In this document: positions 71 to 40,861 of the stretch, one piece after another
Position numbering within the stretch: the first letter of the stretch is position 1
Layout: each line of letters begins with the position of its first letter
Source: Candidatus Eiseniibacteriota bacterium
Lineage (GTDB): Bacteria; Eisenbacteria; RBG-16-71-46; CAIMUX01; WJJG01
Length of the DNA stretch: 64,000 nt
Assembly: GCA_023129715.1 (NCBI GenBank)
Contig: JAGMBO010000032.1
Coordinates: 22,057-86,056 of the forward strand
Direction of reading: 5' to 3'
The notes under the pieces: model-generated
Seen by the model: the letters and a program-made list of their open reading frames with translations, nothing else
The model's database searches: none
Told to the model about the DNA's origin: nothing
Made by a program: the position numbers and the translations under genes

Positions 71-3000
71 ATGAACAACGTGGGGGCAACGCAAATCCGC
101 GCCCAGTTCCCGCAGCGCCACATCACCTACCTGCTCGGCGAGCTCGATGTGCTCAGCGCCAACCTCGATGATGCTGCCCCAGCGATGATGGAGGGGCGCC
201 ACCGGCGCGAGCGGGGACGGATCTACTACAACTATCTGATTCACAAGGGCTGGAATGCCTTTGGCGACCGACGCCAGGCGTTCATTCAGGGATCGGGGCA
301 CGACAAGGACGACATGTACAATTCGGTCTGCGGTGTCTTCGCATTGTTTGCCTACAACGAAGGGTGCCTGTTCAACCCGATCACCGTGGCTGCCGGACAG
401 ACGACCTACTTGATCCAGGATGCTCTCGACGACGCCGTCCAAGGGATGACGGTTCTCTTGGAAGATGGGACCTATACCGGGCACAGGAACAGCTCCCCGG
501 TGTATGGCAAGGCGTTGACGATCCGCTCCGAGAGCCTCGATCCGGCGAGTTGCATCATCGACTGTCAGAATGCAGGCATCGGTTTCGAATTCCACTACGG
601 CGAGGACTACGCGACAGTCCTGCGCGGTGTGACGATTCGCAATGGATACACGACGAACAATGGTGCGGGGATCCTCTGCATGGACGCCTCGCCAGCGATC
701 CGCGACTGTATCATCGAGGACTGCGACGCGGGCAGCTGGGGCGGCGGGATCGCCTGCATGTATTCAGCGTCGCCGACGATCGAGCGCTGCACGGTGCACA
801 ACAACTACGCGCTGGAGGGAGGGGGCATCTACTGCCGCGAATTTTCGCGGCCGACGATCCGGCGCACGATCATCAGCGATTCACGGTTCGGAGCCGGAAT
901 CGCCAGCGACGCGAGCTCGACCCCGGCCGAGATCTCCTGCACCGACATCCACGGCAACCTGGGTGGCGACTGGACGAGCAACATCCAGTCGTTCCAGGGT
1001 GTGTCCGGGAACATCGGGGCCGATCCGCTCTACTGCGGCGCCCCTACGGATCTCCAGCTCTGCGATGATTCACCTTGTCTGGCTGTCTCGGGGGACTGCG
1101 CCCCGCAGATGGGAGGCCTGGCGGCCGATTGCGACTCGTGCGGCAGCTACGTTTGTTGCCTCCACGGAGACTGTACGGTCCACAGTTCCTGGGCGGGATG
1201 CGACGCATTGGGAGGAATATGGCATCCGGAATGGTCGGGCTGCGATCCCAATCCCTGTCCGCCGGGCGAGGGGGCTTGCTGTCAGGCGAGTGCGGTGTGC
1301 CAGATCATGAGTGAAGCCGACTGCGCCGCTGCGTCGGGGAGCTATCAGGGGCATGATACGGCCTGCAGCCCGAATCCCTGCCCCGCGGTCTGCTGCAACG
1401 ACGGGGCGTGTGAGCTGCTGGCCGAGGCCGACTGCGTGACTCCCGGTGTCTGGTACTCGCAGTGGTCGACCTGTACGGGTGCGCCGTGTGCCCTGGCGGC
1501 CTGCTGCGTCGATACCGTCTGCACCATTCTGATCGAGCAGGAGTGCCTGGATCTGGGGGGCAGGTGGCTGTACATGCAGCCTCTCTGTACGCCCAATCCC
1601 TGCAACTCTGCGGTGTGCTGCCAGGGACAGGCCTGCAATCTTTACAGCGAGGCCGACTGCATCTCGTATGGAGGCACCTGGTTCGGCGACTTGACTACCT
1701 GTGCCGACAGTCCTTGCTGGGAGGCGGTCTGCTGCTACGACGACGAGACCTGCGATGAGACTTGGGAGATGATCTGCGACGGGGTCTGGGTCGCCGACTC
1801 GATCTTCTGTGACTCGGATCCCTGCGAGCTGGGTGTGTGCTGCTCAGGCCAGGGCTGCACGATCACGATCCGCCACGAGTGTCTGATCGCCGGCGGGACC
1901 TGGTATCCCGAGTGGGACTCGTGTGACCCGAATCCCTGCCGTCTGCGCGCCTGCTGCAACGGGGGCTACTGCGGTGTCACGCTCGAGAGTGACTGTGCGG
2001 ATTTCTGGATGGAGGGGGAAGAGACCTGTGATCCGAACCCCTGTGTGGCGGGTTGCTGCATCGTGGGCGTCTGTTCGGAGCTGACCGAGGCGGAGTGCGA
2101 GACGGCGGCCGGCATTTGGCATCCGGGATTCATTTCATGCGAGCCGAATGATCCCTGCCCGGCGGTCTGCTGTTATGGGGCCGGGTCATGTGACGTCGTC
2201 ACCGCGCAGACCTGCGCGTCGTGGGATGGGACCCGGCATCCCGAGGGGCTCTCGTGCGACCCGAATCCCTGCTTCCATATCGTTTACCCTGACACCACCG
2301 GTGGGAGACCGACCCTCCAGGCGGTGATCGAGTCGATCGCCCCACCCGGAACGAACGAGGCGATTGGACTGAAGAGCGGGGTCTTTGATGTGGCCATTCA
2401 TCAGGGGAACGAGCCGGGAGGTGTCGACTACAAGGGGCGCCAGATCACGATCCTCTCCCTGAGTGGCGATCCCGCGGATTGCGTGATCGACTGCTCCGGC
2501 GGCGTGCGGGGGTTCGCCTTTCAGTCGGGTGAAGGTTTCCTCTCGAAACTGCAGGGGGTGACGATCCGCAACGGAAACGCGCCGAATGGCGGCGGGATCT
2601 ACTGCGACGGCGCCTCGCCCTCCTTGAGCAACTGCGTCGTCCGGGAGAGCCAGGCGACGGGCAACGGTGGAGGCATGTATCTACAGAACTCGAGCTACCC
2701 GAGCATGTTCGACTGCTGGTTCCTGGACAACACGGCGGGCACGGATGGCGGTGGAGTCTACGGGGGCACGAACTCGGGGGTTTGGATGCAGGGTTGCGTG
2801 TTCGCGGGCAACACGGCGGCGAACTGCGGCGGGGGGGTGTGCAGTGGAGTCACCAGCGTGGCGTCGGAGGCGAATGGCTGCACCTTCTACGGCAATTCGG
2901 CGGCGGAAGGTGGTGGGCTCTACTTCGATCCCAGCTCGGGGAGCGCGCAGCTCCAACGGGCGCTGATCGCGATGAACGCGGGAGGCGGGGGAATCATGTG

Positions 3001-5230
3001 CTTCGGAACATCGATTCCCAGCCTGTGGTGCTGCGATATCTATGGCAATGTGGGCGGCGACTGGAATGGGTTCTTCTATTCGCAGTACGGCACGAGCGCC
3101 AACATCTGGGAACACCCCCAGTTCTGCGATCCTCCGGATGCACTGACGCTGTCGATGAATTCCCCGTGTGTCGACATGATGAGCCCCTGCGGGCAGCAGA
3201 TCGGAGCCCTAGGCATCGGATGTGGCATGGTCTCCGACGATGCTGACGATCTGTCGGCCGGTGTGCTGATCACGCATCATCCACCGGGGCTGCAGTACAC
3301 CGGTGGCACACCCAGCGGGGGCTGGGGCCAGCATTATTCCGACAACTGGCAGCTTCCAGCATGCGAAGACCAGAACCCGCGGATCGACGACGATGGCAGC
3401 ACGTGCCTGATCTGGTATGTGCTGGCAGCATGGCCGGAAGAGAAGCGTTGCTGCGGTGGCGAGTTCGGGCTCGGGCCTTACGATCCCGCGCTGTTCGGCA
3501 TTCTCGACCACGGGCCAGGCTATCCGGCAGTGACGACGCAGACGCCGACGGCCGGTTGGCCGGGCCCCGACGAGGGCGTTGCCGTCTTCTCCGGGGAGAT
3601 GGGCGCGCACTACGGCAACTACGTTCCGATCTATTGGTTTGCGGGCTACACGGGCGGCGCCGGATCGGGTCAGATTCCGCTCGTGCCGAATCCCGCGACC
3701 TCCCGCGCCGGGACCTATGGCTGTGACTCCGGGGGAGGGTTCTTCGACGCGAGCTGCCTGGGCGTCTTGGGGATCAATACCGAGGGAGTCGCGTGCTGTC
3801 CGGCGCCGCCGCCCGACCATGCGGTCTGCTGTGTGGCCGGCGACTGCATGATCACCACAGTGAGCGAATGCACGGGCCTCGGTGGTGCCTGGCACGCCGC
3901 CTGGGCCTCCTGCCTGCCCAATCCCTGCCCGGCAGTCTGTTGTATGGGGGAGGGGTGTGTTCTAGCGACCTCGGCAGAGTGCGCCGGGCTGGGAGGCACG
4001 TGGTACGAGCACGAGGCGACCTGCACGCCCAACCCCTGCCTGGAGCCCGATCACTGGGCCGATCACGACGTCGGCAACCTGCGCGTCTCGATGACCGACG
4101 CCGGGAGTGTCGGCTATCTGGACGGAACACGCAGTGCAGGGTCGGGCCTCGTCTATCCGATCGACGGGGCGAATCGTCTCTGGATCGGCGGCCTCTGGGT
4201 GTCGGGGGGCAGCGACTATGTGGCCAACCGGGACTATGGCGACGATCCGAATCAGGAGTGGACCGTGTCGCTGGATCCGCCCGGATTCGTGACGGTCACC
4301 GAGCCGGGAACCTCGCATCAGGACATCCATGCTGCCTTCACCGACTCAGCGGCGGTCGTGCCGCGTGGCTGGACTGTCGAGCAGGAATCCTGGGCCTATG
4401 CGGTCAACACGAATGCGGATGATTTCATCATCGTTCGCTATCGAGTCGAGAACGAAGGCGTGATCCCGCAGCCCGAGCTCTACGCCGGCCTCTTCCTCGA
4501 CTTGGATATCGAGGGCCCCTACTCCGATCTGGGGGGTGTCGACAGCACCCGCGATCTCGTATACATGAACGACGACTCCGCCAGGGTCTATCTCGGCATT
4601 CGCGTGCTACGCGAGTCGGGTGACCCGCCGGTGGGGAACCTGAGTCTGATTCGCAACTCCCACTTCGTCTGGCCCAACGGAGGGTACATCCTGGACGCGG
4701 ACAAGTACGCCTTTCTGAGCGGCGCCGATTCCGCCCACGTGATGACGAGCACATCGGTGTCCACCGACTACGGGGTCGTTGCCGCGGTTGGGCCGTTTCC
4801 GCTCTACCCGAGTGAAGATGAGCTGGTCTGCTTCGCGATCGTTGGGGGAGAGAGCCTGCGCGAACTCCAAGCCCACGCCGATGCGGCGCAGTTGGTGTTT
4901 GCGAGCGGCTTCGCGGAGGTCGAGGAGGAGACCGCCGAGCAGATCGCAGCGCCCAACACGCGACTGCGACCCGCGCGTCCGAATCCCTTCGGGGCCCGCA
5001 CGGCGATTCGCTTCGAGCTGTCGCAGGCGGGGCCGATCCGGCTGGCGGTCTATGATGTGGGCGGACGCTGCCTGCGTACGCTGGCCTGTGGTGAGCATCC
5101 CGCGGGCCTCTACACCGTCATCTGGGACGGGCGCGACGAGCATCGCCGGGCCGTCGCAGGAGGGGTCTATTTCCTGCACTTGACGGCCGGTGAGGTCCGC
5201 GAGAATCGCCAGGTCGTTCTGCTACGCTGA
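71..5230 (+). CDS. Giant secreted protein: two right-handed parallel beta-helix (pectate-lyase-like) regions, about 12 tandem six-Cys modules (CCxxGxC...C...GGxW...CxPNPC) and a T9SS/FlgD-Ig-like C-terminal sorting domain. Probably 5'-partial, since the frame is open from nt 2.
   Basis: Long ORF with no stop upstream in frame and no signal peptide at M71. Beta-helix signature repeats (GxxxGGGIyC..., NxxxGGGI) near aa 100-330 and 700-1000. About 38-aa Cys modules at nt 1060-2280 and 3810-4045. C-terminal 85 aa (NPFGARTAIRFEL...VYDVGGRCLRTL...WDGRDEHRRAVAGGVYFLHL) matches the T9SS type-A CTD pattern. Confidence 0.8.
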   Translation: MNNVGATQIRAQFPQRHITYLLGELDVLSANLDDAAPAMMEGRHRRERGRIYYNYLIHKGWNAFGDRRQAFIQGSGHDKDDMYNSVCGVFALFAYNEGCLFNPITVAAGQTTYLIQDALDDAVQGMTVLLEDGTYTGHRNSSPVYGKALTIRSESLDPASCIIDCQNAGIGFEFHYGEDYATVLRGVTIRNGYTTNNGAGILCMDASPAIRDCIIEDCDAGSWGGGIACMYSASPTIERCTVHNNYALEGGGIYCREFSRPTIRRTIISDSRFGAGIASDASSTPAEISCTDIHGNLGGDWTSNIQSFQGVSGNIGADPLYCGAPTDLQLCDDSPCLAVSGDCAPQMGGLAADCDSCGSYVCCLHGDCTVHSSWAGCDALGGIWHPEWSGCDPNPCPPGEGACCQASAVCQIMSEADCAAASGSYQGHDTACSPNPCPAVCCNDGACELLAEADCVTPGVWYSQWSTCTGAPCALAACCVDTVCTILIEQECLDLGGRWLYMQPLCTPNPCNSAVCCQGQACNLYSEADCISYGGTWFGDLTTCADSPCWEAVCCYDDETCDETWEMICDGVWVADSIFCDSDPCELGVCCSGQGCTITIRHECLIAGGTWYPEWDSCDPNPCRLRACCNGGYCGVTLESDCADFWMEGEETCDPNPCVAGCCIVGVCSELTEAECETAAGIWHPGFISCEPNDPCPAVCCYGAGSCDVVTAQTCASWDGTRHPEGLSCDPNPCFHIVYPDTTGGRPTLQAVIESIAPPGTNEAIGLKSGVFDVAIHQGNEPGGVDYKGRQITILSLSGDPADCVIDCSGGVRGFAFQSGEGFLSKLQGVTIRNGNAPNGGGIYCDGASPSLSNCVVRESQATGNGGGMYLQNSSYPSMFDCWFLDNTAGTDGGGVYGGTNSGVWMQGCVFAGNTAANCGGGVCSGVTSVASEANGCTFYGNSAAEGGGLYFDPSSGSAQLQRALIAMNAGGGGIMCFGTSIPSLWCCDIYGNVGGDWNGFFYSQYGTSANIWEHPQFCDPPDALTLSMNSPCVDMMSPCGQQIGALGIGCGMVSDDADDLSAGVLITHHPPGLQYTGGTPSGGWGQHYSDNWQLPACEDQNPRIDDDGSTCLIWYVLAAWPEEKRCCGGEFGLGPYDPALFGILDHGPGYPAVTTQTPTAGWPGPDEGVAVFSGEMGAHYGNYVPIYWFAGYTGGAGSGQIPLVPNPATSRAGTYGCDSGGGFFDASCLGVLGINTEGVACCPAPPPDHAVCCVAGDCMITTVSECTGLGGAWHAAWASCLPNPCPAVCCMGEGCVLATSAECAGLGGTWYEHEATCTPNPCLEPDHWADHDVGNLRVSMTDAGSVGYLDGTRSAGSGLVYPIDGANRLWIGGLWVSGGSDYVANRDYGDDPNQEWTVSLDPPGFVTVTEPGTSHQDIHAAFTDSAAVVPRGWTVEQESWAYAVNTNADDFIIVRYRVENEGVIPQPELYAGLFLDLDIEGPYSDLGGVDSTRDLVYMNDDSARVYLGIRVLRESGDPPVGNLSLIRNSHFVWPNGGYILDADKYAFLSGADSAHVMTSTSVSTDYGVVAAVGPFPLYPSEDELVCFAIVGGESLRELQAHADAAQLVFASGFAEVEEETAEQIAAPNTRLRPARPNPFGARTAIRFELSQAGPIRLAVYDVGGRCLRTLACGEHPAGLYTVIWDGRDEHRRAVAGGVYFLHLTAGEVRENRQVVLLR

Positions 5231-5396: not shown

Positions 5397-6310
5397 GAGG
5401 AGTCCACGATGCCCAATAGTCACTCTCCGCATCCGCCGGAACTACGCCGGCGGTTGGTTGAGCTGGTTCGCTCCGGCCGAACTCCGGAGGAACTGGTCAG
5501 GAAGTTCGAGCCCTCTGGCCAGGCCATCCGCAGTTGAGTCCGGCAGGCCGAGCTCGATGAGGGTCGCCGGGAGGACGGCCTGACGACCCCGGAGCGCGGG
5601 GAGATCCGCAAGCTCCGTCGGGAGAACAAGGTTCTCCGTGAGGAGCGGGAGATCTAGGAAAGGCCGCGGCCTGGTTCGCCAAGCAGACCGGCTCGACTCC
5701 GTCAGAATCTTCGCGTTCATGAAAGCGCACCAGGCCATGTTCCGAATCGCCACCATGTGCCGCGTGTTGGGTGTTTCCTCCAGCGGGTATTACACGTGGC
5801 TCACCCGTTCTCCATCGATGCGGGCTCGTAGGGATGAGCACCTGCTTCGACTCATCCGGGAGATCCATTCTCCGTCGGATGGGACCTATGGCGCCGCGGA
5901 TCCACGCCGAGTTGACCGCCTAGAAGATCCATGTGGGTCCCAAGCGGGTCGCTCGTCTGATGGGTGCGGCCGGCTTGGTCGGCGTCAGTCGCCGGAAGTT
6001 CGTCACGACGACCGTGCGAGACCGCGAAGCCAAGGCGGCCCCCGATCTCGTCGAGCGGGATTTCACTCGAAGGGCCCGGACGAGCTCTGGGTGGCGGACA
6101 GAAGTGGTCCCGACATCACCTATGTCCCGACCTGGGAGGGCTTCCTCTACCTCTCCGTAGTCCGGGACGTCTGGACCCGACGGATCATCGGATGGACGAT
6201 GGCCTCCCACCTCCGGACCGAGCTCGTTCTCGAGGCTCTCGACATGGCTCTCAGACAGCGGTGTCCCATCGATGTGATCCATCACTCGGATCATGGCTGC
6301 CAGTGCACGG
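5397..6310 (+). pseudogene. Degraded IS3-family transposase (OrfA HTH plus OrfB DDE integrase fragment, multiple stops and frameshifts, 3' part lost).
   Basis: Frame-hopping translation gives PNSHSPHPPELRRRLVELVRSGRTPEELVRKFEPSGQAIRS*, VRQAELDEG...LRRENKVLREEREI*, ...FAFMKAHQAMFRIATMCRVLGVSSSGYYTWL..., ...VGPKRVARLMGAAGLVGVSRRKF... and ...WVADITYVPTWEGFLYLSVVRDVWTRRIIGWTMASHLRTELVLEALDMALRQRCPIDVIHHSDHGCQ, then diverges. At least 3 stops or frameshifts and no terminal DDE glutamate region. Confidence 0.75.
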
Positions 6311-6574
6311 CGTCGTCGCGATCATCGACCTACCCGTTGCGCGGTTCTCCGGACAGGGTGGAATCGCCAGGAGAGTGGATCCCGGGGGGATGCGATGCAT
6401 CGAACCCGACCGAGATCGTCGATCCTGCACGATCCCGTGAGGACGTTTTCCCGCGACCTCCCGTCTCGGAGCGAGTATCATGTCCCTGTCCCGAAACTCA
6501 GGGGCTCTTCAAGAACGAAAGCCCCAGACCCTCCACGGAAGCCGGGCGACTCCACTAGCGAATGGGAGGTAAAG

Positions 6575-6769
6575 GTGACGACGCAAGGGAACCACTGCCC
6601 CAAGCTGAAGCATCGCCGTTCGGATGGGCCGTTGCGCTTCTGTGTGGAGTGTGGGCAGGTGGTAAATGGGAAGATTCCCAAGAGAGTCTGTACTGAAGAG
6701 GAACATGCGAAAAGACGCCTTGCCAGATCTAGGTACTGTCCGAACTGTGGTGAACAGCTTGTCAAGTAG
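6575..6769 (+). CDS. Small zinc-ribbon protein (CxxC...CxxC, 64 aa) in a local lower-GC patch. Hypothetical, possibly carried in with the IS.
   Basis: GTG start preceded by GGAGGT. VTTQGNHCPKL...FCVECGQ...RYCPNCGEQLVK. GC content drops visibly across 6540-6800. Confidence 0.4.
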   Translation: MTTQGNHCPKLKHRRSDGPLRFCVECGQVVNGKIPKRVCTEEEHAKRRLARSRYCPNCGEQLVK

Positions 6770-6822
6770 CGCTATGGGAGGGATGTCATTCTCTGCCACG
6801 ACTTGGGTATGGGCGAGGACTC

Positions 6823-7692
6823 ATGCACAGTAGCTCCCACGATCCTGCATCCGTGGTGCCAGGCGCCAAGAACTTCACCGCTTCCGGTGACGTCACTTGC
6901 GCTCTGGTGCGCATCCACGACGCGGTTCGTCGCCGGATTCGACATCTTCCTGAGGACCATGCTTCCTCCGTTGGGACTAACCGCCGCGGTCACAGGCAAC
7001 ATCTGTTCGACCTGTCTGCGGACAAGGCTGTGCTCGAAGAGTTGCAAAGTTGCTTCACGAACGCGCTCGTACTTTCCGAGGAGTCTGAGTTACGGCATCT
7101 CGGAGAGGGTTCACCCCAATGGCGCTTCGTGATCGATCCGGTGGACGGATCGGACAACCATGCCCGCGGGCTACCTCTCTCCGCGGTAAGCATTGCGGTC
7201 CTCGACCCGGAAGGTCCCCTGGCCCTGGACCGAGTGCGCTGGGCCATGGTTGGCGGTCTCGATGAGGACCAGCCCCACGTCGCGGCCAGGGACCGCGGAT
7301 GCCAGCGGGGAGATAAGCCGGTGTCGGTATCCGGGATGAGGATCCTCCGGGACGCCTTCCTGTCGTGCGAGCTCAATCACTCTGCTCCCACGCGCCGGCT
7401 GAGCGTGGTGTTTTCTCAAGCGCGCGCAGTTCGAAGCTACGGCTGCGCTTCCCGCGCGCTGATGCTGGTCGCCTGTGGCGCCCTGGATGCGCATATCGAT
7501 GTGCGAAACCGACTGACGGCGGAGAGCTTCCTGGCGGCAGCCTTCATGGTCGAGGAAGCGGGCGGGTGTGTTCTCGACCTTGATGGAAACAACTTCCAAC
7601 ACCTGACAGACCTGCGATCGACGGTCCGGATGGTGGCAGCCGCGACTCCGGAACTCGCCCATCAAATTGCGAAGGAGATCAATGAGATCTAA
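6823..7692 (+). CDS. Inositol-monophosphatase-family phosphatase (IMPase/SuhB/CysQ fold). Candidate DIPP phosphatase of the DIP pathway.
   Basis: Motifs EESE, WFVIDPVDGSDNHARG (IMPase DPIDGT motif) and a C-terminal EEAGGCV region. ATG with GGCGAGGA upstream. Confidence 0.8.
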   Translation: MHSSSHDPASVVPGAKNFTASGDVTCALVRIHDAVRRRIRHLPEDHASSVGTNRRGHRQHLFDLSADKAVLEELQSCFTNALVLSEESELRHLGEGSPQWRFVIDPVDGSDNHARGLPLSAVSIAVLDPEGPLALDRVRWAMVGGLDEDQPHVAARDRGCQRGDKPVSVSGMRILRDAFLSCELNHSAPTRRLSVVFSQARAVRSYGCASRALMLVACGALDAHIDVRNRLTAESFLAAAFMVEEAGGCVLDLDGNNFQHLTDLRSTVRMVAAATPELAHQIAKEINEI

Positions 7693-9148
7693 TACAATTG
7701 ACAGGACCGCAGCCCCCGGCCCACTGCTCGCGCCGGTGGGAAATGCGATCGGTATAGCCGGACACGCCCAGCTCTCCCCAGCCGAACTAGCGACGGGCCC
7801 CGTAGAACTGGCAGTCATTCTCGCTGCCGGCGAAGGGAATCGTCTGGCCCGACACGGGAACGGTTCGCCCAAGCCGATCGTCTCACTACTGGGGCTGTCC
7901 TTGGGCGAAAGAACCATCCTCTCCTGCCTGGAGGCGGGTATTCAGCGGTTTCTCGTGGTCCTAGGGCACGAGAAGGAGGAAGTCCGAGCCCACTTTGAGA
8001 GGATTGCCGCGCAGCGAGGCTGTGAGATTCGCTTTGTCGAGAGCTCGAACTGGCGTCTGGGCAATGGAGCGAGTGGGCTTGCCGCCGCAGAGGCCGCCGG
8101 GGAGAGGCTTTTTCTGCTCTGCATGGTCGACCATCTGCCGCGTCCAGAACTGATCCGAGCGGTGCGGTCAGCTGCCATCAATGAAGGCGAGATTGGTCTC
8201 GGCATTGACCGTGATCGAGATCAACTCTTTGACCCGGAAGACGCTACGAAGGTCACGATTGAGCATGGCAAAGTCACGCATATAGGAAAGCAGCTTGACG
8301 AATGGGACGCAGCCGATACGGGAGTGTTCTTATGTACCCGTGCCTTGTTCAGCGACCTTGCGGCGGCAGCCTCCCGCGGCCGCCATGGGCTCTCGGACGC
8401 CGTGGCGACTCTCGCCAAACGCGGGGCCGTCCGGGCCATCGATGTCACCGGTCTCGGCTGGCTCGACGTGGACACTCCCAAGGCGTGGGATGAAGCCCGC
8501 CGACGTCTCCTCTCTGGCCTGTCGGGGAAGGGTGAGGACGGCTTTGTCTCACGATTCATCAACCGGCCGATCTCGACTCGAATCTCCGCCTGGCTCTCAT
8601 CCACTTCCATTACGCCAAACCAAATCACTGGCGCCGGCTTCCTACTAGCACTCGTCGGCGCGGCGCTCTTGGCGATGGGCGAGGCGGCACTGACGATTGC
8701 CGGAGGCCTTGTGGTGCACGCAGCCTCCATACTTGATGGCTGCGACGGGGAGATCGCGCGGCTCAAACATCGGGCCACGCGGAGGGGGGCTTGGCTGGAC
8801 ACGATCCTCGATCGCTACGCTGACGTGGCAGTAGCTGCGGCGATCACGTTCGCACATGCTCGGTCCCAAGGCGACCCGCTCGTCTGGCTCGGGGGAATGG
8901 TCGCACTCGCGGGCTTCATCTTGGCCAGCTACACGACCAAAGAGTATGTGATTCGGCACGGATATCCCTACCCCAACGATATTCTCAACCGGCTCAAGCG
9001 TCGCGACCTGCGGCTCATTGTCATTTGCGTAGCCGCGGTCGCTGGGCATCCCTATGCGGGCCTGCTTGCAGTTGGGCTGCTCAGCCACGCCTGCGTATTC
9101 GGAATCCTCGTGCGGGGCTGGAAGATCGACCCAAGAGGTGCACGGTAG
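7682..9148 (+). CDS. Bifunctional CTP:inositol-1-phosphate cytidylyltransferase / CDP-inositol:inositol-1-phosphate transferase (IPCT/DIPPS, di-myo-inositol-phosphate-phosphate synthase).
   Basis: N-terminal nucleotidyltransferase G-loop AVILAAGEGNRL. C-terminal membrane domain carries the CDP-alcohol phosphatidyltransferase motif DGCDGEIARLKHRATRRGAWLDTILDRYAD. ATG 7682 has AAGGAG 5 nt upstream; the track ORF begins at TTG 7667. Confidence 0.75.
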   Translation: MRSNTIDRTAAPGPLLAPVGNAIGIAGHAQLSPAELATGPVELAVILAAGEGNRLARHGNGSPKPIVSLLGLSLGERTILSCLEAGIQRFLVVLGHEKEEVRAHFERIAAQRGCEIRFVESSNWRLGNGASGLAAAEAAGERLFLLCMVDHLPRPELIRAVRSAAINEGEIGLGIDRDRDQLFDPEDATKVTIEHGKVTHIGKQLDEWDAADTGVFLCTRALFSDLAAAASRGRHGLSDAVATLAKRGAVRAIDVTGLGWLDVDTPKAWDEARRRLLSGLSGKGEDGFVSRFINRPISTRISAWLSSTSITPNQITGAGFLLALVGAALLAMGEAALTIAGGLVVHAASILDGCDGEIARLKHRATRRGAWLDTILDRYADVAVAAAITFAHARSQGDPLVWLGGMVALAGFILASYTTKEYVIRHGYPYPNDILNRLKRRDLRLIVICVAAVAGHPYAGLLAVGLLSHACVFGILVRGWKIDPRGAR

Positions 9149-9395
9149 TCGGCTGGCCGTCTCGGGCATGACGCTGAGGCCAATCGACGCAGGCTCCGAC
9201 TGATAGGCTACCAATAGATTCCGGTGAGCAGATCCCTGCTTCTCCGGCTGTTGGGGGCGGATTCGGCTGCCGGCAGCCTGGGCAGGATGGGGGGGGCACG
9301 CTTGCAACCCCGTGGCTGATGGGGGATTGGGGACGTTTTTCGAGCCTTCAGGCGTGCAGCGGGCCCTCTCATGCCCCCAAGATGTCCATAAATGA

Positions 9396-9401
9396 TATAA
9401 T
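9396..9401 (+). promoter_or_regulatory. Extended -10 element (TGaTATAAT) in the only AT-rich patch of the 320-nt intergenic, about 70 nt upstream of the C25 peptidase start.
   Basis: Sequence aatgatataattagg at 9391-9405. No clean -35 hexamer. Confidence 0.3.
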
Positions 9402-9471
9402 TAGGATGGTTGTGGCCGTCCGGAGGGGCGTCCGGTCGGCGCAGGGAGAAACACACCCAAGGGGGAATGTC

Positions 9472-11817
9472 ATGCAGCATACGCGCCTACTGCCGGTTGC
9501 GGTCATCGCAGCCCTCTTGCTCGCGTTCGCACTGCCGGCCTCGGGGACCGCGGCCGAGGGAGCGAACGAGGGGCTCTTGGAATACACGTTGGAGTTCTCC
9601 GAGCATGAGCTCACCTTCGAGAACGCCAAGGGCTTCGATCTGGTCTCCATGGACGAGACCACGTTTCTGAGCACGCCCGGCCATCCGATGCTGCCGGTGC
9701 GCCAGATCAAGATCGCTCTACCATCAGGCCTCGTGGCAACCGGTGTCCGTGTGCTCGCCGTGGAACGCGTCGAACTGCCCGGGCGGTTTCTGGTCTATCC
9801 TGCCCAGCCGGCACGCGCAGGCAGCGATCCCAGCGCGAAGCCCTTCGTCGATCCCATCGCAGACATCTACGCCTCCAGTGAGGTGTACCCTTCTGCAGTG
9901 GTGAGTTTCGTGCATCAGACGGACTTGGCCGGCCAGGGCATCGCCGTCCTCGACGTCACCCCGCTGCAGTACGTTCCGGTGACTGGCCGTCTCTCGATGA
10001 CGACCTCACTGACGATCGGCATCGAACATGAGACCGGCCACCTCTACGGGGACTATCTGCCCCAGAACGCCGCTCCCAAGCTGCGGGCGCGCTACGAAGA
10101 GCGCATCGCCCAGATGGTCGTCAATCCCGAGGATGTCATCGTCGCGAGCGCGCCGCTGATGCGTGGCACGCGCGGGGTCGACCCGGGACAATACGATCTC
10201 GTGATCATCACCGATCCCTATCTCGAATGGGCTTTCGAGCCGCTGGTCGAGTGGAAGACCAAGAAGGGTGTGCCGACGAAGGTCGTGACCACCAGTTGGA
10301 TCTACTACACGGGTGGCTATCCGGGGCCGGAGCAGACCGATCAGATTCGTCAGTTCGTCGAGGATGCGCATGCGACCTGGGGCGCAACCTTCTTCCTGCT
10401 CGGCGGGAACCAGTACAAGGTTCCGGTCAACTACTGGGATACCCCAACGGGGATGAATCCCCCGGTTCTGCCTGAAGACGTCTACTACGCCGACTACGAT
10501 GACGACTGGACTCTCGAGGTCAATGTGGGGCGCTGGCCGATTGGCTACAGCTCGGAGGTCACCGCCCACGTGAACAAGGTTTTGACATATGAAAAGACCC
10601 CGCCGCTGACTGATTACGCGGCCCGCCTGGGGCTCTTCGGCTTCGATCTCGATGCCTCGACGCATGGCGAGGAGTGCAAGGAGTACATCGATAGCCAGTA
10701 CATCCCCGGACACATGGATGTTGTCAAGATCTACGACAGCCATGACGGCAATCATGCCGACTCGGCGATCGTTGCGATCGACTCGGGCCTCCACCTGATC
10801 AACCACATCGATCACTGCAATACGGTCGGTTTGGGCATGGGCTCAGTGAACCATGGCTGGTCGATCACCGGCGCCGATGTCCTGAATTTCGTCAATGGGG
10901 ACCGGCAGTGCATCATCTACTCGACCGGATGCTACGTCGGCGCCTTCGACAACATTGATTGCATCTCGACCGACTTCGTCAACGAGTTCGACAACGGCGC
11001 GATCGCCTTCATCTGCAATACCCGGTATGGCTGGTTCAATCCTGGCCTGTGCACGACGCTCTCGAATCTCTGGGACCGCCGCTTCTGGGGCCAACTCTTC
11101 AACCAGGAGAAGTACACACTGGGTGAGTGTTTCTCGGACCACAAGGATGTGGTCTTTCTGACGAGCAACACACATCGGTACATCTACAAGGAGTTGACCC
11201 TCTTCGGTGATCCGGAGCTGCCACTCTGGACCGATGATCCGGCCGATCTGGTCGTCACCCATGACGCGACCATCGAGACCGGCGGGGCGACGCTTGATGT
11301 GCATGTCGAAGACAGCGGCGGCGGCGCGCTTGAAGAGGTGCGCGTGTGCCTCTGGAAGGGGGATGAGGTCTATCTCGTCGACTACACGGGGGTGACGGGG
11401 GATGTGACCTTCAATCCCAACGCGACGACCGAGGGCACGCTCTATGTGACCGCAACGGTTCACAACTACCTGCCCTACGAAGGGGAGACGGCAGTGCTCG
11501 ATCCGGCGGATGTGGCCGAGGATGCGGTGGTACCGACCGTGCTGCGGCTTCACCCCAACCGCCCCAGCCCGTTCCGGACGACAACGACGATCGCCTATGA
11601 CCTACCCGCGGAGTCGCGGGTCAGCCTGCGGATCTATGATCTGACGGGCCGAGTGATGCGCTCGCTGGTCGATGACCGGATGCAGGTGCAGGGCAGCCAC
11701 GAGGTCGTCTGGGACGGACGAGATGACGCCGGGCGACCGGTGGCATCGGGCGTCTACCTGTATCGGATGGAGAGCGACGAGCAGCAGCTGACGCGTCGGA
11801 TGTTGATGCTGCGCTGA
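9472..11817 (+). CDS. Gingipain-like cysteine peptidase (family C25) with signal peptide and T9SS-type CTD.
   Basis: Signal peptide MQHTRLLPVAVIAALLLAFALPASG. C25 catalytic His (INHIDHCNTVGLG) and Cys (IIYSTGCYVGAFD) regions. C-terminal RLHPNRPSPFRTTTTIAYDLPAESRVSLRIYDLTGRVMRSL...VWDGRDDAGRPVASGVYLYRM. RBS AAGGGGGA. Confidence 0.85.
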   Translation: MQHTRLLPVAVIAALLLAFALPASGTAAEGANEGLLEYTLEFSEHELTFENAKGFDLVSMDETTFLSTPGHPMLPVRQIKIALPSGLVATGVRVLAVERVELPGRFLVYPAQPARAGSDPSAKPFVDPIADIYASSEVYPSAVVSFVHQTDLAGQGIAVLDVTPLQYVPVTGRLSMTTSLTIGIEHETGHLYGDYLPQNAAPKLRARYEERIAQMVVNPEDVIVASAPLMRGTRGVDPGQYDLVIITDPYLEWAFEPLVEWKTKKGVPTKVVTTSWIYYTGGYPGPEQTDQIRQFVEDAHATWGATFFLLGGNQYKVPVNYWDTPTGMNPPVLPEDVYYADYDDDWTLEVNVGRWPIGYSSEVTAHVNKVLTYEKTPPLTDYAARLGLFGFDLDASTHGEECKEYIDSQYIPGHMDVVKIYDSHDGNHADSAIVAIDSGLHLINHIDHCNTVGLGMGSVNHGWSITGADVLNFVNGDRQCIIYSTGCYVGAFDNIDCISTDFVNEFDNGAIAFICNTRYGWFNPGLCTTLSNLWDRRFWGQLFNQEKYTLGECFSDHKDVVFLTSNTHRYIYKELTLFGDPELPLWTDDPADLVVTHDATIETGGATLDVHVEDSGGGALEEVRVCLWKGDEVYLVDYTGVTGDVTFNPNATTEGTLYVTATVHNYLPYEGETAVLDPADVAEDAVVPTVLRLHPNRPSPFRTTTTIAYDLPAESRVSLRIYDLTGRVMRSLVDDRMQVQGSHEVVWDGRDDAGRPVASGVYLYRMESDEQQLTRRMLMLR

Positions 11818-11876: not shown

Positions 11877-13499
11877 CTAGAAAATGACCAGCGGCACCGA
11901 CTGCTGCCCGTCCGCGGATCTCAACCGGGCGAAGTAGCAGCCCCGGGACAGTGGGCGTCCCCATCGATCCCGGCCGTCCCACGGGATGTCGAGGGGCCCA
12001 GGAGAGGCCGACAGACGCCAGTGGCGTACACACCGGCCGTTGGCATCGATGATCTCAACAGCCAGCGGTCCCGATCCGGCGACGTGCAGTTCGAGGGTCA
12101 GCCGGTCCCGCGCGGGAGAGGGGACCGCGGAAATGCGCTGCACGGTGCGTGAGGGTGCCTGCGGGATCGCGCCGGGGCCGGTGCTATAGCGGGATAGATG
12201 CACCTCGTAGTTGTCTTTGTCGCCGGCGAATTCGGTCCAGGCGACCCAGGCGGCGACGGTGGCGCGGTCACCTCGTCCCGGCACGACAATCACATCGGCG
12301 CCGACAATCGAGGGGCGGTACCCGTTCTCGCCGTCGGGGAGACTGATGACGTAGTCCTCGCTCGCGCCGCTCCAGCCCGCGACCTCGAAGAACGAGAAGT
12401 GCTGCTCCTTGCTGCCCGCGGTGTCCTCCTCCTCATCCCAAACCGCGCAAGGGCCCAACGCACCACGCACGGTGACATCGGGATTGTGGGCACTGCGCCC
12501 GCCGCCTTCGTCGTGAGAGACGGGCGTATTGACCGACTCGCCGGTCCAGGTCACCCCGAGGTCAAAGGAACTCGTGGCGTAGATCTCGTAGTGATATGGG
12601 CTGCTCGTATCGAAAGAAGCCTTGTAGACGACGTGGATGCCTTCCTCATGGGAGTAGGGCGCTGCCGCGAGGGCAAGATCGCCGATCAGGGTAGGCGGCT
12701 GGCAGATCTCCCGGTCGGCGGTCGCGCTGCTCCAGGTGAGCCCATCATCACTAGAGATGCCGACGTGGACGGTTTTCTTTCCCGAGTCCCCCGTCTCGTG
12801 CCAGACGACAAAGAGATGATCCTCGCAGGCGGTGATCTGCGGATCGAGGGCGCTGGTGCCGTCGGGGAAGCTGATCACCTGGTCACCGGTCATGCCGCTC
12901 CAGGTAGCCCCGCCGTCGGCCGAGCGCGAGTAGTGGACCTCGGCAGTCTCTCCGGAGAGCTGATGCCAGACGACATGAAAAACCCCGTCGAGATCGCAGG
13001 CGATCGAGGGAATCCCGGCATCCACTGCCGTGGCGGGGTCACTCAAGATCTGATCGGCCGTCTCGCAAGACCAGGTAGTGCCCTGATCATGCGAGACGCC
13101 GAAGTGGATCTCACGCGTGCTGATCGCATCCTCGCTCCAGACGATGATGAGCGAACCGGTCACTGGATTCATGGCCGCCGCGCACTCATCGAGCATCGCC
13201 TGGCCGTCGGGGAAGCTGATCACGCGGTCGGTGAGGGAGGAACTCCAGGTCTCGCCCTCGTCGATGGAGCGACCGTAGTGGATCTCGGCATCCCAGACGA
13301 TATCCTCGGTCCAGAATGCATGCACGGCGGAACCGTCCTCGGCGGCGACAAGTTGTACGGCGCGTGCATACTTGTCGTCGTCACAGCTGATAACCTGGTC
13401 GGCATCCTGACCCGACCAGTCGGCGGCCCGGGCCTGAATGAGCGGGGCGGCCGGTAGCCAGGCGAGGAGGACCAAGCCGAGGGGCGAGAGCGTCTTCAT
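11877..13499 (-). CDS. Secreted BNR/Asp-box repeat protein (sialidase-like beta-propeller) with T9SS-type CTD.
   Basis: Signal peptide MKTLSPLGLVLLAWLPAAPLIQARA. Five or more SxDxGxTW repeats (DEGETWSS, DQGTTWSC, DGGATWSG, DDGLTWSS, DLGVTWTG). C-terminal ...AVEIIDANGRCVRHW...WDGRDRWGRPLSRGCYFARL. RBS GGAGGTG 5 nt upstream of ATG 13499. Confidence 0.8.
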   Translation of the reverse strand: MKTLSPLGLVLLAWLPAAPLIQARAADWSGQDADQVISCDDDKYARAVQLVAAEDGSAVHAFWTEDIVWDAEIHYGRSIDEGETWSSSLTDRVISFPDGQAMLDECAAAMNPVTGSLIIVWSEDAISTREIHFGVSHDQGTTWSCETADQILSDPATAVDAGIPSIACDLDGVFHVVWHQLSGETAEVHYSRSADGGATWSGMTGDQVISFPDGTSALDPQITACEDHLFVVWHETGDSGKKTVHVGISSDDGLTWSSATADREICQPPTLIGDLALAAAPYSHEEGIHVVYKASFDTSSPYHYEIYATSSFDLGVTWTGESVNTPVSHDEGGGRSAHNPDVTVRGALGPCAVWDEEEDTAGSKEQHFSFFEVAGWSGASEDYVISLPDGENGYRPSIVGADVIVVPGRGDRATVAAWVAWTEFAGDKDNYEVHLSRYSTGPGAIPQAPSRTVQRISAVPSPARDRLTLELHVAGSGPLAVEIIDANGRCVRHWRLSASPGPLDIPWDGRDRWGRPLSRGCYFARLRSADGQQSVPLVIF

Positions 13500-13613
13500 G
13501 GGATCACCTCCATGTTCGAGGTGGGCGGATTGCATAGCGCGGCTTGCGCAAGTGCGCCGTGAGGAGGATAGGTCTTTGTGCGCCCGCCTGTCAACTTGGG
13601 AGCGCGGCGTAGC

Positions 13614-14495
13614 TCAGGCCTTGATTTTCTCCAGCACTGCCGTGGGCTTGATCCGATGGCGGGTAAGGCCGACCTCATCGGCCGAGAAGCCCTGAGCGAG
13701 TCCGAGGAGCTGGAAGAAGTAGACCGGTGGAACCTCGAAGTGCTCCTTCGTCTTTCGGTTGAGCAGAAGCTGACCGGTGTCGAATGATGAGAAGCAGGTC
13801 GGGCAGATCATCCCCATGCAATCAGCTCCGCTCTTCCTTACCGAGCGCAACACGCTAGCAGTCATATCCAGGGGAAGGTCGGGGTCGATGCACGCCTTGC
13901 CGCAGCAGAGGAAACGCTCGTCATGAGTGACCGGTTCGGCCCCAATCGCCTCGATGAGCTGATGGAGGATCTGGGGATCATCGGGGTCGTCGACCTGCAT
14001 GATCGAGGAGGGCTTCAGCAAGTGACAGCCGTAGTGCAGCGCGACACGCACGCCCGTCAGGGGGCGGGTGACGCTCTCACGCACGCGATCGATGCCGACC
14101 TTCTCGCGCAACAGGACGACGATATGGCGGACGGCAATCGAACCCTGGTATTTCCGGCCGACGCGCGCGAGGCGCCGGTTGACACGCTCGCGCAGCTGCT
14201 CATCGTTGCGCAGAAGGTGATTGGCTTCGCTCAGGGTGCCGGTGCAGCCGCTGCAGACCGTGAAGATGTCGTGGCCCGCCTCCTCGGCGAGGGCCAGATT
14301 GCGGGCCGCGAGCGTGAGCCAGGCGATCTTGTCGGCGGCCTGGAAGTAGATCGGATCGGGACAGCAGGAAAACCCCTCCAGATCGATGATCTCGACGCCC
14401 AGGTTGGGAAGCGTTCGCCGGATGGCGACTTCCATCTGCGGGTACTTGATCGGGATCAGGCAACCGGGGAAGAAGATGGCCTTGATCGGCTTCAT
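13614..14495 (-). CDS. hdrB: Heterodisulfide reductase subunit B (two CCG cysteine-rich domains).
   Basis: IFFPGCLIP...CCPDP and HYGCHLLKPS...CCGKACIDP motifs typical of HdrB. Overlaps hdrC by 4 nt. Confidence 0.85.
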   Translation of the reverse strand: MKPIKAIFFPGCLIPIKYPQMEVAIRRTLPNLGVEIIDLEGFSCCPDPIYFQAADKIAWLTLAARNLALAEEAGHDIFTVCSGCTGTLSEANHLLRNDEQLRERVNRRLARVGRKYQGSIAVRHIVVLLREKVGIDRVRESVTRPLTGVRVALHYGCHLLKPSSIMQVDDPDDPQILHQLIEAIGAEPVTHDERFLCCGKACIDPDLPLDMTASVLRSVRKSGADCMGMICPTCFSSFDTGQLLLNRKTKEHFEVPPVYFFQLLGLAQGFSADEVGLTRHRIKPTAVLEKIKA

Positions 14496-15040
14496 GATTC
14501 ACTCTCCGCGGTCGAAGAGGGCGGACTGTCTCCCGGGGGCGGATCCTCCGGGGCGAGCACAGCCCGCAATTCCCCCATGTCGATCGCCGGCAGGGGAGGC
14601 AGTCCCATGCTCTCCCGCTTGCGCTTCAGGCTGGCGATCACCGGCGCGCTGCGGCCGGTCTTGAGGATCGTCTCGTAGATGGTTTGGGCCTCCTCGGGAT
14701 GCGTGCCCTCCTCGCGGGCGAGGTTCTTCAGCGCAATAATCACCTCGACGGGCCGGACGTCCTGCGGACAGCGCTCGTAGCAGTTGTAGCAATTGGAGCA
14801 TTTCCAGATCACCGATCCGGGAGCGAGGAGGGTACCCAAGTCTCCGAGCAGGGCGGTCAACATGATCTCCCGCGGATTGAAGCTGGGGAAGAAGCGTGTC
14901 GTGGGACAGTCCCCGACACATGCCCCGCATTGGTAGCAGTAGTTGACATGATTCCCGCCCAGCACGGCGAGCAGCCGCCGCCGCTGGGCGAAATCGATAC
15001 GGATGCGCTTGTGGGGGGATGCGGCTTGTTCTGCTTCCAT
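14492..15040 (-). CDS. hdrC: Heterodisulfide reductase subunit C (2x[4Fe-4S] ferredoxin-like).
   Basis: CYQCGACVGDCP and CSNCYNCYERCP cluster motifs. ATG 15040 preceded by GAGGTG. The track ORF's upstream extension is a read-through. Confidence 0.8.
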   Translation of the reverse strand: MEAEQAASPHKRIRIDFAQRRRLLAVLGGNHVNYCYQCGACVGDCPTTRFFPSFNPREIMLTALLGDLGTLLAPGSVIWKCSNCYNCYERCPQDVRPVEVIIALKNLAREEGTHPEEAQTIYETILKTGRSAPVIASLKRKRESMGLPPLPAIDMGELRAVLAPEDPPPGDSPPSSTAESES

Positions 15041-15086
15041 GGACACCTCGTCCGCCTGGTCTCGATCGGCCGGGCCGTTCGCGCGT

Positions 15087-15230
15087 CTAGCCCTTGGCCT
15101 CTTTGGTGGGCCGGATGCTGTTGCTGCGGCAGCGGGGACAGACCCGCTCGACCGGCTCGCCATCCTTCCTGTGGACCGCGGTGAATTCCAGCCCGCAACG
15201 CAGGCACCGAAACCGCCGTTCTTCCTCCAT
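15087..15230 (-). CDS. Small FmdB-family-like zinc-ribbon protein (47 aa) embedded between hdrA and hdrC.
   Basis: MEEERRFRCLRCGLEFTAVHRKDGEPVERVCPRCRSNSIRPTKEAKG. GGGAGG RBS upstream. Not in the ORF track. Confidence 0.5.
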   Translation of the reverse strand: MEEERRFRCLRCGLEFTAVHRKDGEPVERVCPRCRSNSIRPTKEAKG

Positions 15231-15260
15231 TGTTGCTCTCCCTCCCGGGTAGGGTGCCGG

Positions 15261-17783: not shown

Positions 17784-17830
17784 CAGCTCCTCTCCGTCTT
17801 GCGGAACCCTGGTTCTCGCAACTCCTCGAT

Positions 17831-19810: not shown

Positions 19811-19823
19811 CCTGCCGGCAGCC

Positions 19824-22800: not shown

Positions 22801-23126
22801 CGCGCTTCATCGACCCCCGTCGGGTGCCGGCGGATGGTGGCGCGAAAGGCCCCCGCCTCACCCTCGAGAGTGAGGAGCTCGGAACAGCGCAAGATCTCGA
22901 TCCGGGGATGCCGACCGGCATCCATCATCTTGGGACCGAGGATTCAGATCGCGCAGTCCATCGTGGGAAAGGTCTTGTCGAGCTGGGCCATCCGCCCGCC
23001 CAACGACGGCGTGCGCTCTACCAGGAAGACCTGATGCTGCGCCGTGGCCAGATCCAGGGCGGCCTGGATCCCGGCAATGCCGCCGCCGATGACGAGAACC
23101 GCCCTGTCTCGGTCGCTGCCTGCCAT
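19824..23126 (-). CDS. hdrA: Tandem-domain HdrA-like flavoprotein (HdrA2-type). N-terminal FAD module has in-frame UGA (predicted Sec at 22944-22946). Second HdrA-like module lacks the Sec/Cys motif. C-terminal 2x[4Fe-4S] ferredoxin.
   Basis: The track splits it into 22944..23126 and 19824..22928. ...[37 protein letters not shown] second CxCGxNIA domain ([15 protein letters not shown]) and a second Rossmann module ([17 protein letters not shown]) follow. C-terminus [13 protein letters not shown]...[12 protein letters not shown]. Confidence 0.8.
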
Positions 23127-25802: not shown

Positions 25803-26259
25803 GGCTGGCCTCCTTCTGGCTGCGGGACGATGCTCGCTGCGCGCCTGCCGGTGGTCCGGCGGGCGGCTCCGCGGACGACTGTGCTGCCGACTGCTCGGGG
25901 GACTGCCCGGCCGACTGCTCGGGGGACTGCCCGGCCGGTTGCTCGGCGGATTGCCCGGCCGGTTGCTCGGCGGATTGCCCGGCCGGTTGCTCGGCGCCGG
26001 GGTCGGGCACATCCTCCGAGTAGATGGCGAACTCGGGGCAAATGATCTCGCAGAGGCTGCAATTGACACAGGCGTCTTCTTTGACCGGCTCGGGATAGTG
26101 GTAGCCCTTCTTGTTGTATCTCTCCGAGATGACCAGGACGTCCCGCGGGCAGTATTCGACGCAGAACCCGCAGCCCTTGCAGCGCTCGACAATGATGTAG
26201 ATGCGCCCCCGTGGCGGCATGAACTGCTGCCGGTCCAATGGCGTTCTCCAAAAGCGCAT
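25795..26259 (-). CDS. korD: 2-oxoacid:ferredoxin oxidoreductase delta subunit (2x[4Fe-4S] ferredoxin) with an unusual C-terminal octapeptide-repeat tail (AEQPAGQS x5).
   Basis: CKGCGFCVEYCP and CVNCSLCEIICP. C-terminal tandem 24-nt DNA repeats at about 25878-25999. RBS GGAAGGG. Confidence 0.75.
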   Translation of the reverse strand: MRFWRTPLDRQQFMPPRGRIYIIVERCKGCGFCVEYCPRDVLVISERYNKKGYHYPEPVKEDACVNCSLCEIICPEFAIYSEDVPDPGAEQPAGQSAEQPAGQSAEQPAGQSPEQSAGQSPEQSAAQSSAEPPAGPPAGAQRASSRSQKEASRE

Positions 26260-40741: not shown

Positions 40742-40861
40742 GCTGCTTTTCAGAGGGTCGCCTTGACCGCCGCGAGCTCGACACGATATAATTGCATGTG
40801 GACGGCGTCTCATGCGTGGTGCAGCCATTGCCCCATCATCCTTGGTCAAGGAGGCCTCCCC

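Follow-up and report, generated by a model that had tools for sequence, protein, structure and literature searches.

We describe a pair of overlapping genes in a 64,000-nucleotide stretch of contig JAGMBO010000032.1 (positions 22,057 to 86,056 of the forward strand), from the Candidatus Eiseniibacteriota assembly GCA_023129715.1; the whole of this stretch is referred to here as the window. The upstream open reading frame (ORF), ORF1, encodes a phosphatase of the inositol monophosphatase (IMPase) family, and the downstream one, ORF2, a protein of the bifunctional IPCT/DIPPS family (EC 2.7.7.74 / 2.7.8.34), in which an inositol-1-phosphate cytidylyltransferase (IPCT) is joined to a synthase of di-myo-inositol-phosphate-phosphate (DIPPS). 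Judged from their sequences, the two genes probably form a cassette for the synthesis of an inositol phosphodiester compatible solute, most likely DIP (di-myo-inositol-phosphate), a compound that would protect a cold-seep host against stresses other than heat. An initial annotation of the window had recognized a phosphatase gene and a cytidylyltransferase/CDP-alcohol transferase gene at this locus; both are present, and their Pfam domains match.

Sequence and predicted structure support ORF2 as a bifunctional IPCT/DIPPS-family protein at the level of the family. Residue numbers of ORF2 refer throughout to a 493-amino-acid form that starts at TTG 7667 (7667-9148 in a program-made ORF list). Pfam places NTP_transf_3 at residues 49-176, with an NTP_transferase match that reaches residue 279, and CDP-OH_P_transf at residues 316-456. 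The protein is laid out as a cytidylyltransferase domain (approximately 48-286), a juxtamembrane helix (293-310) and six transmembrane helices (317-484). The CDP-alcohol phosphotransferase signature that the initial annotation had read in the membrane domain (DGxxxAR...G...D...D) takes the form D357-G-C-D360-G361-E-I-A364-R365...G374...D378...D382, and every numbered residue in it is unchanged in 84 of the 84 family members that we aligned. The top curated family is NCBIfam NF041135 (bifunctional IPCT/DIPPS), which matches over the full length (E = 2.3e-71), and the best match by sequence among solved structures is Archaeoglobus fulgidus IPCT/DIPPS (Protein Data Bank (PDB) code 4mnd; E = 1.3e-48, ORF2 residues 48-455). 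An AlphaFold model built with 22 homologues (predicted local distance difference test (pLDDT) 86.1; predicted template modelling score (pTM) 0.79) consists of a Rossmann-like domain, the juxtamembrane helix and the six transmembrane helices, with residues 1-37 disordered. Foldseek ranks 4mnd first for this model (E = 5.3e-25, target-normalized template modelling score (TM-score) 0.86, 31% identity, rmsd 3.4 over 444 columns). The corresponding TM-scores are 0.75-0.80 for A. fulgidus AF2299, 0.84 for Thermotoga maritima IPCT (4jd0) and 0.88-0.91 for A. fulgidus 2xme/2xmh. Taken alone, the cytidylyltransferase domain scores 71.9 bits against A. fulgidus IPCT (2xme) and 75.7 against T. maritima IPCT (4jd0); these two IPCTs score 80.4 bits against each other, and the ORF2 domain therefore lies inside the divergence spanned by both structures.

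Two other identities were considered for ORF2 and rejected. A phosphatidylinositol phosphate (PIP) synthase is disfavoured by a score of 53.5 bits on NF045883 (cutoff 170), by a match of 33 bits to the Mycobacterium tuberculosis PIP synthase (MtPIPS) and by a different architecture; an archaetidylinositol-phosphate synthase is disfavoured by 81.3 bits on NF040950 (cutoff 180) and by the presence of the fused cytidylyltransferase. In a neighbour-joining tree of membrane domains, which is crude and carries no support values, A. fulgidus AF0263 (the protein of 4mnd) and AF2299 both branch within the environmental family, and the PIP synthases lie outside it. Profile and structure scores agree with the IPCT/DIPPS family named in the initial annotation, and not with the PIP or archaetidylinositol synthases that it had listed as refuting outcomes. 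A locus labelled ‘uncultured Thermotogae’ (L039) was discarded as a stand-in for the T. maritima enzyme, its match to 4jd0 being just 54 bits.

The membrane domain also holds information on the acceptor. Members of this enzyme family with six transmembrane helices use soluble acceptors, and lipid-acceptor members usually carry 3-4 extra helices (Clarke 2015, PMC4634129). ORF2 has six helices, and in the AlphaFold model its chain stops 9 residues past the last of them, which supports a soluble acceptor. In MtPIPS, inositol phosphate is bound by S132, K135, R155 (in an RxxR motif) and R195 (PMC4634129). In the alignment, S421/Y422 of ORF2 stand at MtPIPS S132/Y133, and R446xxR449 at R152xxR155; these positions are kept in 80-83 of the 84 family members. 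AF2299 has an equivalent acceptor-site motif with Ala at the Ser position, and the motif is thus non-discriminating; the acceptor-site residues of ORF2 would fit an inositol-phosphate acceptor.

ORF1 matches the Pfam family Inositol_P with E = 5.6e-24 and 85.5 bits (cutoff 27). Its best NCBIfam match is the archaeal-type fructose-1,6-bisphosphatase (FBPase)/IMPase family NF009321, at 135.5 bits and under the cutoff of 264. The IMPase superfamily's first metal-binding motifs are still in place, with LSEE at residues 84-87 and DPVDGS at residues 105-110, both conserved across 28 linked homologues. These homologues share the motifs FDxxAD, LSEE, DPVDGS(D/E)N, SCELNH, VRxYGCAS and LDAHxDxRxRLTPE(S/N)(F/Y)LA, and throughout the subfamily TPE(S/N)(F/Y)LA(A/P) stands in place of the canonical WDxAAG; HMMER places the WDxAAG Asp of PH1897 opposite a Ser in ORF1. 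FBPase has Glu280 at the equivalent position, and by analogy a conserved Glu one residue before the replaced Asp may substitute for it, which would make ORF1 probably an active enzyme. The subfamily is small: of 1.84 billion cluster representatives, 38 match at E <= 1e-30, and full-length fusions were absent from the best 150 matches of this representative search. We consider ORF1 a candidate phosphatase for DIPP, the phosphorylated intermediate of DIP synthesis.

Relatives of ORF2 are numerous. A homology search returned more than 1,000 proteins, the closest of them 85% identical, and a scan of one genome per species located relatives in at least 594 species of GTDB. Nearly all of the 80 relative-bearing species listed are uncultured metagenome-assembled genomes (MAGs) from many phyla, cold-seep ones included. 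Bacterial groups among them are Planctomycetota, Acidobacteriota, Gemmatimonadota, Krumholzibacteriota, Zixibacteria, Eisenbacteria, Nitrospirota, Nitrospinota, Desulfobacterota and Proteobacteria; ANME-1, Hadesarchaea and Helarchaeota are listed as well.

To describe the genomic context, we clustered all flanking ORFs of the relative loci and named recurrent neighbours by Pfam. Loci at least 42% identical to ORF2 were treated as the query's subfamily and the rest as a more distant subfamily; among the loci counted are a few near-duplicates, as well as the contig of the window itself. An IMPase-family gene lies directly upstream of the IPCT/DIPPS gene at 33 of 42 loci in the query's subfamily and at 0 of 38 in the distant one. 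A gene for MIPS, the synthase of myo-inositol-1-phosphate (PF01658), on the same strand and no more than 1.5 kb upstream occurs in both subfamilies (13 of 34 and 15 of 30 loci, respectively). The predicted ancestral order in the query's subfamily is MIPS-IMPase-IPCT/DIPPS. Because the IPCT/DIPPS genes are linked to MIPS, inositol-1-phosphate is supported as their substrate. Two relatives, P0073 (753 amino acids, L003:10001-12262, GCA_025782575.1) and P0067 (662 amino acids), are fusions of IMPase, cytidylyltransferase and phosphotransferase, and would represent a trifunctional form of the pathway; we know of no description of such a fusion. Since, in many phyla, a phosphatase is persistently linked or fused to it, the transferase appears to make a product that bears a removable phosphate, as DIPP does.

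The distant subfamily has a different partner. A DUF4202/HD-domain protein of approximately 190 amino acids is encoded directly downstream at 21 of 35 of its loci, compared with 0 of 39 in the query's subfamily. Examples are L068:11274-11909 and L061:2887-3453, with 19 other loci, none of which has an IMPase partner. We consider it a candidate for the phosphatase that acts last in the distant subfamily, one not homologous to the IMPases; we found no mention of DUF4202 in the literature searched. Two further recurrent neighbours were observed. Genes for GH130 (beta-mannoside phosphorylase-like) proteins adjoin IPCT/DIPPS in L042, L056, L061 and L075 and recur near the synthase in loci of ANME-1, Hadesarchaea and Deltaproteobacteria; they also lie approximately 8 kb from it in an 81%-identical relative, and L088:1-2333 holds two GH130 genes and a GT4 gene. 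These genes might relate to mannosylated inositol solutes. A gene for a protein of approximately 420-444 amino acids with HTH_3 and Peptidase_M78 domains (IrrE-like) lies directly upstream of MIPS, IMPase or the synthase in L011, L014, L016, L017, L018 and L021, from Acidobacteriota, Gemmatimonadota and Krumholzibacteriota, and may encode a stress-responsive regulator of the operon.

We propose a four-step pathway. L-myo-inositol-1-phosphate would come from a MIPS whose gene presumably lies in another part of the genome. The N-terminal domain of ORF2 would use CTP to convert inositol-1-phosphate to CDP-inositol, and the six-helix membrane domain, with a metal held by D357, D360 and D378 and with D382 as the base, would transfer phospho-inositol to a second inositol-1-phosphate to give DIPP. 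ORF1 would then take the remaining phosphate off DIPP, which makes DIP the predicted product of the pair. In the host, the solute would serve in salt, pressure or general stress protection and not in protection from heat.

In textbooks, DIP typifies organisms that live above about 55-60 °C. The threshold for thermophiles marked by DIP is given as growth above approximately 55 °C (Goncalves 2012, as cited in PMC8397731). The source of the genes described here is of another kind. An identical 488-amino-acid ORF2 occurs in GCA_030629055.1, on the 73,252-bp contig DAOVPT010000022.1, and again on a Logan contig of run SRR13892596. GCA_030629055.1 is CSMAG_1556 of a cold-seep genome catalogue, a MAG that is 97.8% complete with 3.36% contamination and is classified as p__Eisenbacteria; c__RBG-16-71-46; o__CAIMUX01; f__WJJG01 (PMC10491686). 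SRR13892596 is sample RS_1.78 from a South China Sea methane seep where the water is 1153 m deep; it comes from a sediment depth of 1.60-1.95 m, and we infer from this habitat that the host lives in cold deep-sea sediment. The (hyper)thermophilic lifestyle that the initial annotation had drawn from the gene pair fails because the source is cold deep-sea methane-seep sediment; relatives, too, are found mostly in uncultured MAGs. The osmotic stress that it had offered as the other option fares better, as a role in osmotic or other physical stress is possible.

Fused IPCT/DIPPS proteins are already on record from comparable settings. Hadal and deep-sediment Thaumarchaeota encode them (Zhong 2020, PMC7265257; Kerou 2021, PMC8397731; Zhang 2024, PMC10773090), and a hadal archaeon carries an extra IMPase gene near IPCT/DIPPS on a small genomic island, with transcripts at approximately 2 °C (PMC7265257). 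Atribacteria of methane-hydrate sediments carry MIPS and IPCT-DIPPS (bioRxiv 10.1101/536078). The published reading for cold deep-sea IPCT/DIPPS is an osmolyte or a pressure-protective solute. We found no report that links Eisenbacteria to DIP in the literature searched, and the locus would add Eisenbacteria, a bacterial phylum, to the growing set of organisms from the cold deep sea in which the DIP pathway is already published as encoded. IPCT/DIPPS genes must not serve as evidence of thermophily.

Several observations weigh against DIP as the product. ORF2 scores 241 bits on NF041135, a profile built for Thermococcales, and thereby fails its equivalog cutoff of 580, which verified bacterial enzymes may fail too. 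AF0263 passes at 615.4 bits although truncated to residues 42-420, and seven other environmental relatives of ORF2 score 251-297 bits, all below the cutoff. Because of this shortfall, the ORF2 clade lies well outside the verified archaeal group; by its scores it would be a distant sister of that hyperthermophile group, outside the equivalog. Taken by itself, the membrane domain scores 134 bits over 186 residues against the CDP-glycerol-bound AF2299, but 83 bits against the DIPPS domain of A. fulgidus and 33 bits against MtPIPS. ORF1, for its part, is without the canonical WDxAAG aspartate. Finally, there is no MIPS on the 73-kb contig or beside the cassettes of the four closest relatives. We searched the 64-kb window and the rest of the 73-kb contig by tblastn with three MIPS proteins that are 53-80% identical to one another, and found none (best E = 0.2), which bears out the initial annotation's remark that no MIPS gene adjoins the pair; nor did one occur in the flanks of the four closest relatives (81-88% identity). 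MIPS proteins from relative loci of many phyla are 53-93% identical.

The first two of these observations feed the most serious rival, that the chemistry is the same and the product another soluble phosphodiester, such as glycero-phospho-inositol made from CDP-glycerol and inositol-1-phosphate, or an undescribed polyol-phospho-inositol; ORF1 would still strip the terminal phosphate. Both the closer match of the membrane domain to AF2299 and the position of the clade under the IPCT/DIPPS equivalog cutoff speak for it, and DIPPS domains are reported, in work of Rodrigues and colleagues from 2007, to accept CDP-glycerol as a donor too. AF2299 was itself crystallized with CDP-glycerol (Clarke 2015, PMC4634129). 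However, the fused cytidylyltransferase of ORF2 is full length and within the divergence of the two IPCT structures, whereas the extramembrane domain of AF2299 is described as merely cytidylyltransferase-like (PMC4634129), and the recurrent operon partner is MIPS, with no glycerol-phosphate cytidylyltransferase in the neighbourhood clustering. We regard this alternative as unlikely. Somewhat less probable again is a function in membrane lipid synthesis, in which ORF2 would form CDP-inositol and then load the phospho-inositol group onto a lipid alcohol (diacylglycerol, dialkylether glycerol or ceramide). CDP-inositol-to-lipid transfer is attributed to BEPIS of Rhodothermus marinus (Jorge et al. 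2015, as cited in PMC4587543) and proposed for an alternative Bacteroidetes inositol-lipid cluster (Heaver et al. 2022, PMC9246714); on these accounts, a bacterial pathway of this kind exists and its genes are clustered with MIPS. Some of the related loci come from Bacteroidota-like MAGs (L048 and L051), and a PAP2 lipid-phosphatase gene adjoins the cassette in L086 and L087. Against this, the descriptions give IPCT and lipid transferase a gene each, whereas ORF2 is a fusion, as in DIPPS, and direct transfer to a lipid would need no phosphatase, yet one is adjacent at 33 of 42 loci and fused in some. ORF2 also has just six transmembrane helices where lipid-acceptor members typically have 3-4 more (PMC4634129), and it conserves the RxxR and S/Y residues tied to inositol-phosphate acceptors.

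The missing MIPS raises a different prospect, that the cassette is a recently acquired passenger, useless in a host that has no source of inositol-1-phosphate. An adjoining insertion-sequence remnant and an atypical G+C content at third codon positions (GC3) fit this, as does the absence of MIPS from the 73-kb contig and from the surroundings of the cassette in close relatives. Neither frame is broken, however; no catalytic motif is missing, and the start is coupled. At least four relatives (81-88% identity) have retained the pair although their flanks differ, an argument for selection, and a MIPS gene may sit on another contig. We consider a useless passenger very improbable, and a cassette for an inositol phosphodiester solute, most likely DIP, remains the reading that we favour.

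The start of ORF2 affects how the two genes are joined. ATG 7682 is most likely the true start, because an AAGGAG sequence lies 5-10 nt upstream of it, because the 488-amino-acid form is the one in a public assembly, and because P0001, a homologue 85% identical to ORF2, begins at the equivalent position. The AAGGAG lies within the 3' end of ORF1, as a direct reading confirms (...cgAAGGAGatcaATGagatcTAA). An exact look-up returned the 488-amino-acid ATG form and no record of the 493-amino-acid TTG form; one for the RsgA ORF likewise gave no match. The overlap with ORF1 that the initial annotation had described is real, and its size needs correction: it spans 11 nt (ATGAGATCTAA) from ATG 7682 instead of the 26 nt that result from the TTG start. 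The spacing of the AAGGAG and the 11-nt overlap would fit translational coupling of ORF1 and ORF2. Neither promoters nor terminators exceeded the shuffled expectation in a scan of 6400-9500. Coordinates are collected in Table 1.

Table 1 Coordinates of the gene pair and of the features immediately upstream, in positions of the window
Feature	Position	Strand	Description
IS3-family transposase remnant	5638..6558 (public annotation 5719-6558)	+	NCBIfam NF033516, Pfam rve
Small zinc-ribbon-like ORF	6575..6769	+	Four Cys pairs; between IS3 remnant and ORF1
ORF1, IMPase-family phosphatase	6823..7692	+	289 amino acids; Pfam PF00459 (Inositol_P)
ORF2 Shine-Dalgarno-like AAGGAG	7672..7677	+	Within ORF1 3' end
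ORF2, bifunctional IPCT/DIPPS-family protein	7682..9148	+	488 amino acids from ATG 7682

Several features of the locus suggest that the cassette was horizontally acquired as an island of approximately 3.5 kb. The transposase ORF upstream matches NF033516 with E = 4.5e-42 over profile positions 82-290 of 369, at 144.6 bits (cutoff 160), and Pfam rve over positions 11-80 of 102. Because its profile coverage is partial and its score is below the cutoff, we consider it a remnant, as the initial annotation had done. GC3 is 0.697 in ORF1, 0.681 in ORF2 and 0.675 in the IS3 remnant, whereas 13 further genes in the window span 0.776-0.893. The flanks of the relatives at 81-88% identity are unlike those of the window and partly unlike each other, and in a crude neighbour-joining tree ORF2 groups with Planctomycetota and Acidobacteriota, apart from the Eisenbacteria locus L033 (47% identical). 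It is on the low GC3, the remnant, the differing flanks and this grouping together that the suggestion of horizontal acquisition is based. The small ORF between the remnant and ORF1 is part of a 158-amino-acid gene in Logan contig L085 and has no call in the NCBI record; weak zinc-ribbon Pfam matches fall in the C-terminal part of ORF 6293-6769.

Other parts of the window were also surveyed. Many large secreted proteins with FlgD_ig or Por_Secre_tail C-terminal domains are encoded at 71-5230, 9319-11817, 11877-13535, 40763-43333 and 43604-46549. The set includes a Cys-rich beta-helix giant (1991 amino acids when read on the whole contig), a peptidase of family C25, a BNR protein, an S8 subtilase and an fn3/CBM96 protein, and points to a repertoire for export by a type IX secretion system (T9SS)-like route in this Eisenbacteria MAG. 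A heterodisulfide-reductase-like and MvhD(FlpD)-like gene cluster (CCG, Fer4, FlpD and Pyr_redox_2 domains) occupies 13614-22928 on the minus strand, and is followed by a pyruvate:ferredoxin oxidoreductase gene at 24645-26192. Within the cluster, ORF 15003-17849 (plus strand, 948 amino acids) is probably spurious, because it has no Pfam match and a 636-amino-acid Fer4/FlpD gene is called on the minus strand over most of its span.

We tentatively extend the argument to the family as a whole, in a hypothesis that goes beyond what we would call likely. DIP or a close analogue could, without being specific to heat, protect bacteria of cold, deep-sea and sediment habitats in dozens of phyla against stress, and be made by a compact cassette that moves horizontally, with ORF1-type IMPases and DUF4202 proteins acting as DIPP phosphatases. 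If this were true, the TPE(S/N)FLA subfamily of IMPases would be a dedicated DIPP phosphatase and DUF4202 its non-homologous replacement in the sister subfamily. If biochemistry confirmed both assignments, the last step of the pathway would be accounted for and DUF4202 would gain a function.

Comparison with known systems places the cassette among fused synthases and sets it apart by its phosphatase and its host. In AF0263 and the Thermococcales enzymes, as in ORF2, IPCT is fused to a CDP-alcohol phosphotransferase with six transmembrane helices. AF0263 and ORF2 have an identical D1xxD2G1xxAR...G2xxxD3xxxD4 signature and have the motifs S..DGCDGE, NR..S, SYT and RDxR in common; they differ in sequence (approximately 31% identity), in their NF041135 scores (615 compared with 241 bits) and in that the host of AF0263 is a hyperthermophilic archaeon, whereas ORF2 has a dedicated, overlapping IMPase-like partner gene and a cold-seep bacterial host. 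AF2299 (4o6m) is the closest solved membrane domain by sequence and has the same six-helix fold and motifs, but its extramembrane domain is only cytidylyltransferase-like, and as a whole protein it reaches a TM-score of 0.75-0.80, compared with 0.86 for 4mnd. The archaeal IMPase/FBPase enzymes (NF009321; PH1897, 1vdw; MJ0109, 1dk4; AF2372, 1lbv) are the best family and PDB matches of ORF1 and have the EE and DPxDGS metal-binding motifs in common with it; unlike them, ORF1 falls under the NF009321 cutoff and has TPE(S/N)(F/Y)LA instead of WDxAAG.

The IPCT and BEPIS of R. marinus and the Bacteroides vulgatus-type cluster also make CDP-inositol with an IPCT-like enzyme and pass it to a CDP-alcohol phosphotransferase, and they are clustered with MIPS, like the ORF2 family. 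By their descriptions, those systems have separate genes, a lipid acceptor and a HAD hydrolase in place of an IMPase (PMC9246714). Closest in setting are the islands of Thaumarchaeota and Atribacteria, which we compared by description: like ORF2, they place fused IPCT/DIPPS in non-thermophiles of cold, high-pressure marine habitats, and the locus described here differs from them in its Eisenbacteria host and in an IMPase gene that overlaps the synthase gene. What the comparison adds to these systems is modest: the dedicated subfamily of IMPases, the fusions that would be trifunctional and the substitution by DUF4202/HD proteins.

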